DNA from: Pseudomonas phage vB_PaePA10145phi1_MKR2
Reading direction: 5' to 3' (one strand)
DNA length: 64,000 nucleotides
Sequence record: PV565008.1
The position numbers and the translations under genes are program-made. Below the pieces are notes generated by a model. It searched no databases. It was not told the DNA's origin and saw only the letters and a program-made list of their open reading frames with translations. Shown here piece after piece: positions 1,881 to 1,916 of this stretch. Each line of letters begins with the position of its first letter. Within the stretch, counting starts at the first letter, position 1.

Positions 1881-1916
1881 TATTACATTAAAAAAAGTTT
1901 AAGATCTATATTACAG
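1881..1916 (+). promoter_or_regulatory. Early-promoter-like element, copy 1: TATTACATTAAAAAAAGTTTAAGATCTATATTACAG, with TATATTAC at 1907..1914
   Basis: This 36-mer is 35/36 identical to 53588..53623 and related to 53074..53108. It is AT-rich, contains TATATTAC (the reported phiKZ early consensus), lies directly after a terminator, and sits 44 nt upstream of the ATG at 1958. Confidence 0.6.

Follow-up and report, generated by a model that had tools for sequence, protein, structure and literature searches.

Three AT-rich elements in a phiKZ-type jumbo phage probably belong to the phiKZ early-promoter family

Three related AT-rich elements, one of them directly behind the major capsid gene, raise the question of whether a jumbo phage opens early transcription units within a late structural region. 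The elements lie in a stretch of 64,000 nt of Pseudomonas phage vB_PaePA10145phi1_MKR2 (PV565008.1, one strand), here called the window. The early promoters of phage phiKZ, active in the opening minutes of infection, have an AT-rich consensus and are attributed to the injected virion RNA polymerase (vRNAP), and the three elements resemble them in genome type, extended AT-rich consensus and orientation and, at the two elements with a mapped transcription start site (TSS), in the spacing to that site. We conclude, with a probability of roughly 0.93, that they are members of the phiKZ early-promoter family, which counts about 31 sites per genome in a single orientation.

Judged by its sequence, the window is DNA of a phiKZ-type Pseudomonas jumbo phage. 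It is 99-100% identical to fnug, PA7 and phiKZ and extends over roughly 118.75-182.75 kb in phiKZ coordinates. [quoted passage not shown] The offset from the window to phiKZ NC_004629 ranges from 118750 to 118756 (118756 was used for the TSS of promoter P089), a spread that implies a few small indels between the two.

The three elements and their surroundings

Compared in a common 36-nt register, copy 1 (TATTACATTAAAAAAAGTTTAAGATCTATATTACAG) occupies positions 1881-1916 with its TATATTAC core at 1907-1914, copy 2 (AACTACACTAAAAAATAATTAAGATATATATTACTA) positions 53072-53107 with the core at 53098-53105, and copy 3 (TATTACACTAAAAAAAGTTTAAGATCTATATTACAG) positions 53588-53623 with the core at 53614-53621. 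A sequence check at the positions given by the first-pass annotation found three AT-rich copies, all on the plus strand, as it had claimed, and reproduced its figure of 35 identical positions out of 36 between copies 1 and 3. Copy 2 agrees with copy 1 at 27 and with copy 3 at 28 of the 36 positions. The 26-mer AAAAAAGTTTAAGATCTATATTACAG, common to copies 1 and 3, occurs exactly twice in the window, with no occurrence expected from 100 shuffles. The octamer TATATTAC alone is not enriched (8 in the window versus 6.5 expected), and the five exact octamers outside the three copies have scores of -12 to -32 bits with the full-length weight matrix described below. The signal is the whole element of about 36 nt rather than the octamer.

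Copies 1 and 3 are more alike than the family consensus requires, and their 35/36 identity could be read as a recent duplication or transposition of a small cassette, that is, a repeat with no regulatory role. We consider this extremely improbable. The identity does not extend past the promoter element into the flanks, which are unrelated; neither extended flanking homology nor target-site duplications were seen between the copies. Moreover, the same element stands at about 31 intergenic sites in one orientation, and copies 2 and 3 have mapped start sites.

Each of the three copies is intergenic, on the plus strand and ahead of a co-oriented gene, the first ORFs downstream encoding 150, 131 and 68 aa and corresponding to PHIKZ121, PHIKZ166 and PHIKZ166.1, respectively. 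The distance from element to ORF had been put at 35-57 nt; counted from the element ends that the same annotation used, it is 41, 31 and 53 nt, so that this range was wrong. Its placement of every copy directly after a terminator hairpin is right for copies 1 and 3 and wrong for copy 2. In front of copy 1 lies the GC-rich hairpin at 1850-1873 (plus strand) that ends the major capsid gene transcript, found by the terminator scan and present in the published list of intrinsic terminators as T057 (phiKZ 120629); the hairpin is followed by a conserved CTTTATG tail. In front of copy 3, between it and PHIKZ166, lies the GC-rich hairpin T078 (53547-53566, plus strand). Copy 2 and the minus-strand gene PHIKZ165.1 (52872-53048, 58 aa) point away from each other across an intergenic region, with 24 nt between the element and the start codon of that gene, whose presence shows that no terminator immediately precedes copy 2; the nearest hairpin (52845-52865) is about 210 nt upstream. 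The first-pass label "Rad50-like" for the neighbouring 830-aa gene is acceptable, given its match to phrog_77 (SbcC-like family, E = 1e-98); its Pfam SMC_N match lies below the cutoff of that family.

Behind copy 1, the ORF list and annotation place the plus-strand operon PHIKZ121-125 at 1958-8004, with ORFs at 1958-2410, 2367-3449, 3459-5090, 5126-7291 and 7372-8004; the third of these (3459-5090) encodes gp123, an nvRNAP subunit. Copy 2 is followed by PHIKZ166 (53140-53535, plus strand, 131 aa), the first gene of its unit, and copy 3 by PHIKZ166.1 (53678-53884, 68 aa) and PHIKZ167 (53903-54331, 142 aa), both on the plus strand and within transcript TU130. Searches of the downstream proteins against Pfam and PHROGs matched only families of unknown function. 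No counterpart of copies 2 and 3 was found outside the phiKZ species group, the only distant matches being to the PHIKZ165.1 coding sequence in Serratia and Klebsiella phages.

PHIKZ165.1 itself is unlike the rest of this segment: its coding DNA is about 75% identical to stretches of Serratia and Klebsiella jumbo phages, and at the protein level it matches PHROGs derived from the N-terminal parts of large virion structural proteins. It is expressed from a published late promoter (P090, transcript TU129) at window position 53409 on the minus strand, inside PHIKZ166. This transcript runs to about 52841 and crosses the 5' part of PHIKZ166 and copy 2 in antisense, and could therefore interfere with the early unit of PHIKZ166.

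A genome-wide family of early promoters

A 36-nt weight matrix was built from 13 published early TSSs, all outside the window, and anchored on the core. Copies 1, 2 and 3 score 37.1, 31.0 and 36.3 bits, and nowhere else in the 64-kb window does a site exceed 0.5 bits; the leave-one-out scores of the 13 training promoters run from 5.7 to 38.1 bits. As the first-pass annotation had proposed, the motif was also searched for genome-wide, in the whole of phiKZ, with a hit threshold of at least 10 bits and Markov shuffles as the null. This search returned 33 sites, all 33 on the plus strand, compared with a null mean of 0.45 sites per genome and a null maximum of 15.6 bits. By annotation 31 of the 33 are intergenic and the two inside ORFs are weak (12.0 and 12.5 bits), so that the motif does not recur within ORFs at a similar density; such recurrence had been named by the annotation as something that would refute its reading. 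For phiKZ and its relatives, early promoters are cleanly recovered with the full-length matrix and not with the TATATTAC octamer.

The element consists of an upstream (G/A)(T/C)A(T/C)T, an A-tract, TT.AGAT and the core TATAT(T/C)AC. In 15 of 15 early promoters the mapped TSS lies 7-8 nt past the C of the TATATTAC core. The predicted spacing of about 8-12 nt was thus close, copies 2 and 3 having their mapped starts at 7-8 nt. Among validated promoters, the long motif of P017 matches copies 1 and 3 and that of P012 matches copy 2; the agreement between copy 1 and P017 is exact across AAAAAAAGTTTAAGATCTATATTAC.

At about 17-19 of the 31 early sites in the phiKZ genome, the promoter directly follows a GC-rich hairpin with a TTTATG tail. 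Terminator and promoter form one compact cassette at such sites.

The family has been mapped before. Two reports give 28 early promoters in phiKZ (Ceyssens et al. 2014, J Virol 88:10501) and 32 by dRNA-seq (Wicke et al. 2021, RNA Biol 18:1099), and ONT-cappable-seq recovered 18 (Putzeys et al. 2024). Table S3 of Putzeys et al. (bioRxiv) labels P089 (TSS 171868) and P091 (TSS 172385) as "early promoter" and credits both to the dRNA-seq of Wicke et al. 2021. P089 corresponds to copy 2 and P091 to copy 3, and neither copy differs from its published promoter. In the window, the P089 TSS falls at 53112 (plus strand), leaving a 28-nt 5' UTR before PHIKZ166, and the P091 TSS at 53629 (plus strand), with a 49-nt 5' UTR. 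Earlier publications therefore already cover the family and its consensus, together with mapped starts for two of the three sites; phiKZ biology gains essentially nothing new from the present result, whose practical use is as an annotation check. Since the count of about 31 sites agrees with the published 28 and 32, copy 1, as a top-scoring site, is very likely among those promoters.

The elements are AT-rich and contain a -10-like TATATT, and could in principle be host sigma-70 promoters read by the Pseudomonas RNA polymerase. One weak sigma-70-like match does overlap copy 2 (TTCACA, 18 nt, TAAGAT; 9 of 12 positions). Such pairs of -35 and -10 hexamers, spaced by 16-18 nt, are, however, no commoner in the region than after shuffling, and none lies at copy 1 or copy 3; the conserved motif reaches well beyond a -10 hexamer and includes no -35 element. 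In addition, phiKZ infection and transcription as a whole are rifampicin-resistant and independent of the host RNA polymerase. This leaves a host promoter as a very remote explanation.

The phiKZ late promoter (T-3 A-2 T-1 G+1) was also considered and rejected, copies 1 and 3 carrying AATG and CATG at that place. The mapped start of copy 2 does fall on TATG, the late-promoter initiator motif (window 53098-53112). PHIKZ166 mRNA falls 14-fold by 30 min, so late firing of copy 2 is not evident.

For the early-promoter reading, the proposed course of events is that vRNAP, carried in the virion, would initiate 7-8 nt past the TATATTAC core straight after DNA injection, independently of the host RNA polymerase and of the phage nucleus, and that its specificity would come from the conserved stretch of about 36 nt rather than from the core alone. 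The assignment of the motif to the virion polymerase is an inference of the literature, where co-injected proteins are considered as possibly needed for promoter recognition; we found no in vitro proof there that this enzyme recognises the motif. Purified nvRNAP gave robust transcription in vitro only from a late promoter template and not from the early one tested. Under the proposed scheme copy 2 would drive PHIKZ166 and copy 3 PHIKZ166.1-167, small genes of the phiKZ species group only, and the terminators before copies 1 and 3 would insulate the early units from upstream transcription.

Copy 1 and the operon behind the capsid gene

Copy 1 is expected to initiate at G1921 or A1922 (phiKZ 120671/120672; feature 1920-1922, plus strand), as predicted from the TSS spacing and a conserved TGA. 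By restarting transcription behind the capsid-gene terminator into PHIKZ121-125, including gp123, it would allow an early operon within the late structural region and would supply the nvRNAP beta-N subunit needed for later transcription. gp123 has been described as an early gene product, and knockdown of PHIKZ122 or PHIKZ124 strongly perturbs phage transcription.

The published RNA-seq time courses of Gerovac et al. 2025 (5, 10, 15, 20 and 30 min; control versus chmA knockdown) were used to follow the neighbouring genes. In the control, PHIKZ121 gave 1673, 2040, 2265, 2027 and 661 at the five time points, PHIKZ123 gave 5495, 7751, 4062, 3524 and 1584, and PHIKZ166 gave 9461, 10081, 3214, 1456 and 699. 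At 30 min of the chmA knockdown PHIKZ121 reached up to 2715 and PHIKZ123 up to 10183, and PHIKZ166 persisted at 6417. The capsid gene PHIKZ120 went from 21025 up to 121458 in the control and showed no rise in the knockdown (18175 at 30 min). The rise of the capsid gene thus needs the nucleus whereas PHIKZ121, PHIKZ123 and PHIKZ166 have the opposite profile, and the units downstream of copies 1 and 2 therefore behave as early and nucleus-independent. This bears out the first-pass proposal that early units adjoin the late capsid gene. PHIKZ121 has a flatter early profile than PHIKZ166, and with capsid reads abundant as early as 5 min, PHIKZ121 may receive some read-through.

Two further observations concern these time courses. 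The capsid gene (window 1-1761) and the tail fibre gene PHIKZ146 have high, flat reads from 5 min (about 21000 and 17000, respectively) that the chmA knockdown leaves unaffected until the late rise; these early reads resemble RNA carried over with the lysate more than products of early transcription. PHIKZ173 (about 57440-58400) has an early-like, nucleus-independent profile (control 11817, 21032, 14662, 5818 and 2912; up to 56329 in the chmA knockdown), and no early-type motif above 0.5 bits was found upstream of it within the window, including 55590-55690.

Copy 1 has no TSS in the ONT-cappable-seq table, which calls none between phiKZ 119075 and 130258, and no transcription unit in those tables contains PHIKZ121-125. 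One might accordingly suppose that copy 1 is unused or very weak and that PHIKZ121-125 is transcribed by read-through from the capsid-gene promoters or from an unrecognised promoter. The lack of a TSS or unit for this region fits such a supposition, as do the fact that the homologous site in phage 201phi2-1 is likewise not reported as a promoter and the higher capsid-gene reads per nucleotide, relative to PHIKZ121, at 5 min. Against it, PHIKZ121 and PHIKZ123 fall late in the control and persist or rise when the nucleus is blocked while the capsid gene does the opposite, which shows that they are not co-regulated, and an intrinsic terminator stands between the capsid gene and PHIKZ121. Copy 1 also shares 24-26 nt without a mismatch with the mapped promoters P017 and P091, and its site is conserved in five genera. 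Its absence from the ONT table carries little weight because that study recovered only 18 of the about 31 motif sites. Taken together, we regard an idle copy 1 as improbable, and prefer its assignment as a working early promoter.

The conservation was assessed in four other phages, HPP-Temi (Pawinskivirus), Phabio, 201phi2-1 and PhiPA3, which together with phiKZ represent five genera. All four keep the order of capsid gene, gap of about 200 nt, small ORF, gp122 homologue and nvRNAP subunit. In the five-genus alignment of the gap, the terminator hairpin, GGCTTTATG, the A-run, AT.TATAT(T/C)A and the TGA at the expected start are retained and the flanks diverge; both GGCTTTATG and this TGA are invariant at the capsid-gene site. 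The orthologous sites of Phabio and PhiPA3 score below 5 bits with the phiKZ matrix, yet their core ATCTATATTAC is conserved; upstream preferences are genus-specific, and the phiKZ matrix therefore transfers poorly.

In 201phi2-1 (Serwervirus) the published early motif is highly similar to that of phiKZ, with conservation at -10, -20 and -30, and differs in its position-specific preferences (PMC11512511). Scanned with the phiKZ matrix, the first 150 kb of this genome yield 13 sites, all on the plus strand. The orthologue of copy 1 (NC_010821, 132426-132461) lies between the capsid gene and gp201, 1.56 kb upstream of the nvRNAP gene gp203, and differs in having the core variant TATATCAT. It scores 17.0 bits with the phiKZ matrix and 28.1 bits with a 201phi2-1-specific matrix from which it was excluded, the null maximum being 11.5 bits per 150 kb. 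A 25-nt stretch of it recurs without a mismatch in a site immediately before gp124, at which the authors place an early promoter; for the surroundings of gp203, the homologue of gp123, they report none (PMC11512511). An early-type site thus appears to have been missed in the published analysis of 201phi2-1, and the copy 1 promoter appears to have been missed by both ONT-cappable-seq studies. A likely early promoter can now be proposed for the gp123 operon and for its 201phi2-1 homologue gp203, an operon that the long-read maps had left unassigned.

Promoter subclasses and parallels in other phages

The phiKZ early promoters fall into two subclasses, the first with an A-tract followed by TT.AGAT.TATATTAC and the second with TTCAAAC.ATTTTAAACAGTATATTACAA. 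Copies 1, 2 and 3 all belong to subclass I, which also precedes ChmA (gp54), the nvRNAP genes gp68 and gp70.1/gp71, and PHIKZ036 (upstream of the PhuZ gene). In published RNA-seq data, the peak tends to come at 5 min for subclass II genes, followed by decay even with the nucleus blocked, and at 10-15 min for subclass I genes, whose transcripts tend to persist; PHIKZ216 and PHIKZ166 are exceptions to this trend. Over 14 genes, chosen partly post hoc, the Mann-Whitney test gave p = 0.011 for the 10/5-min ratio and p = 0.002 for persistence; with first genes only (9 genes) the values were 0.11 and 0.06. The two subclasses may differ in timing, a proposition that we offer as a hypothesis only because of the post hoc gene choice and the confounding effects of operon position and mRNA stability. 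According to a 2026 review, the mRNAs of the nvRNAP subunits, ChmA and PhuZ accumulate more slowly than some other early mRNAs. A link between subclass and timing, if true, would place the distinction between immediate-early and delayed-early expression in the promoter sequence. That the subclasses differ in timing and that copy 1 serves the nvRNAP beta-N operon as its conserved early promoter throughout the nucleus-forming jumbo phages of Pseudomonas is, as a joint proposal, tentative, and we would give it slightly less than even odds.

More distant phages resemble phiKZ in the general plan of early transcription and differ in its signals. The Bacillus jumbo phage AR9, like phiKZ, packages a multisubunit RNA polymerase in its virion, and its early promoters have an AT-rich consensus of about 10 nt centred near -10. 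AR9 differs from phiKZ in its consensus sequence, in its uracil-containing DNA and in having no phage nucleus. Coliphage N4 is like phiKZ in outline, with an injected virion polymerase that transcribes early genes encoding a second phage polymerase, but the N4 enzyme is a giant single-subunit polymerase. The promoters of the N4 virion RNA polymerase are DNA hairpins, whereas the phiKZ motif contains no hairpin and the hairpins found at copies 1 and 3 are upstream terminators.
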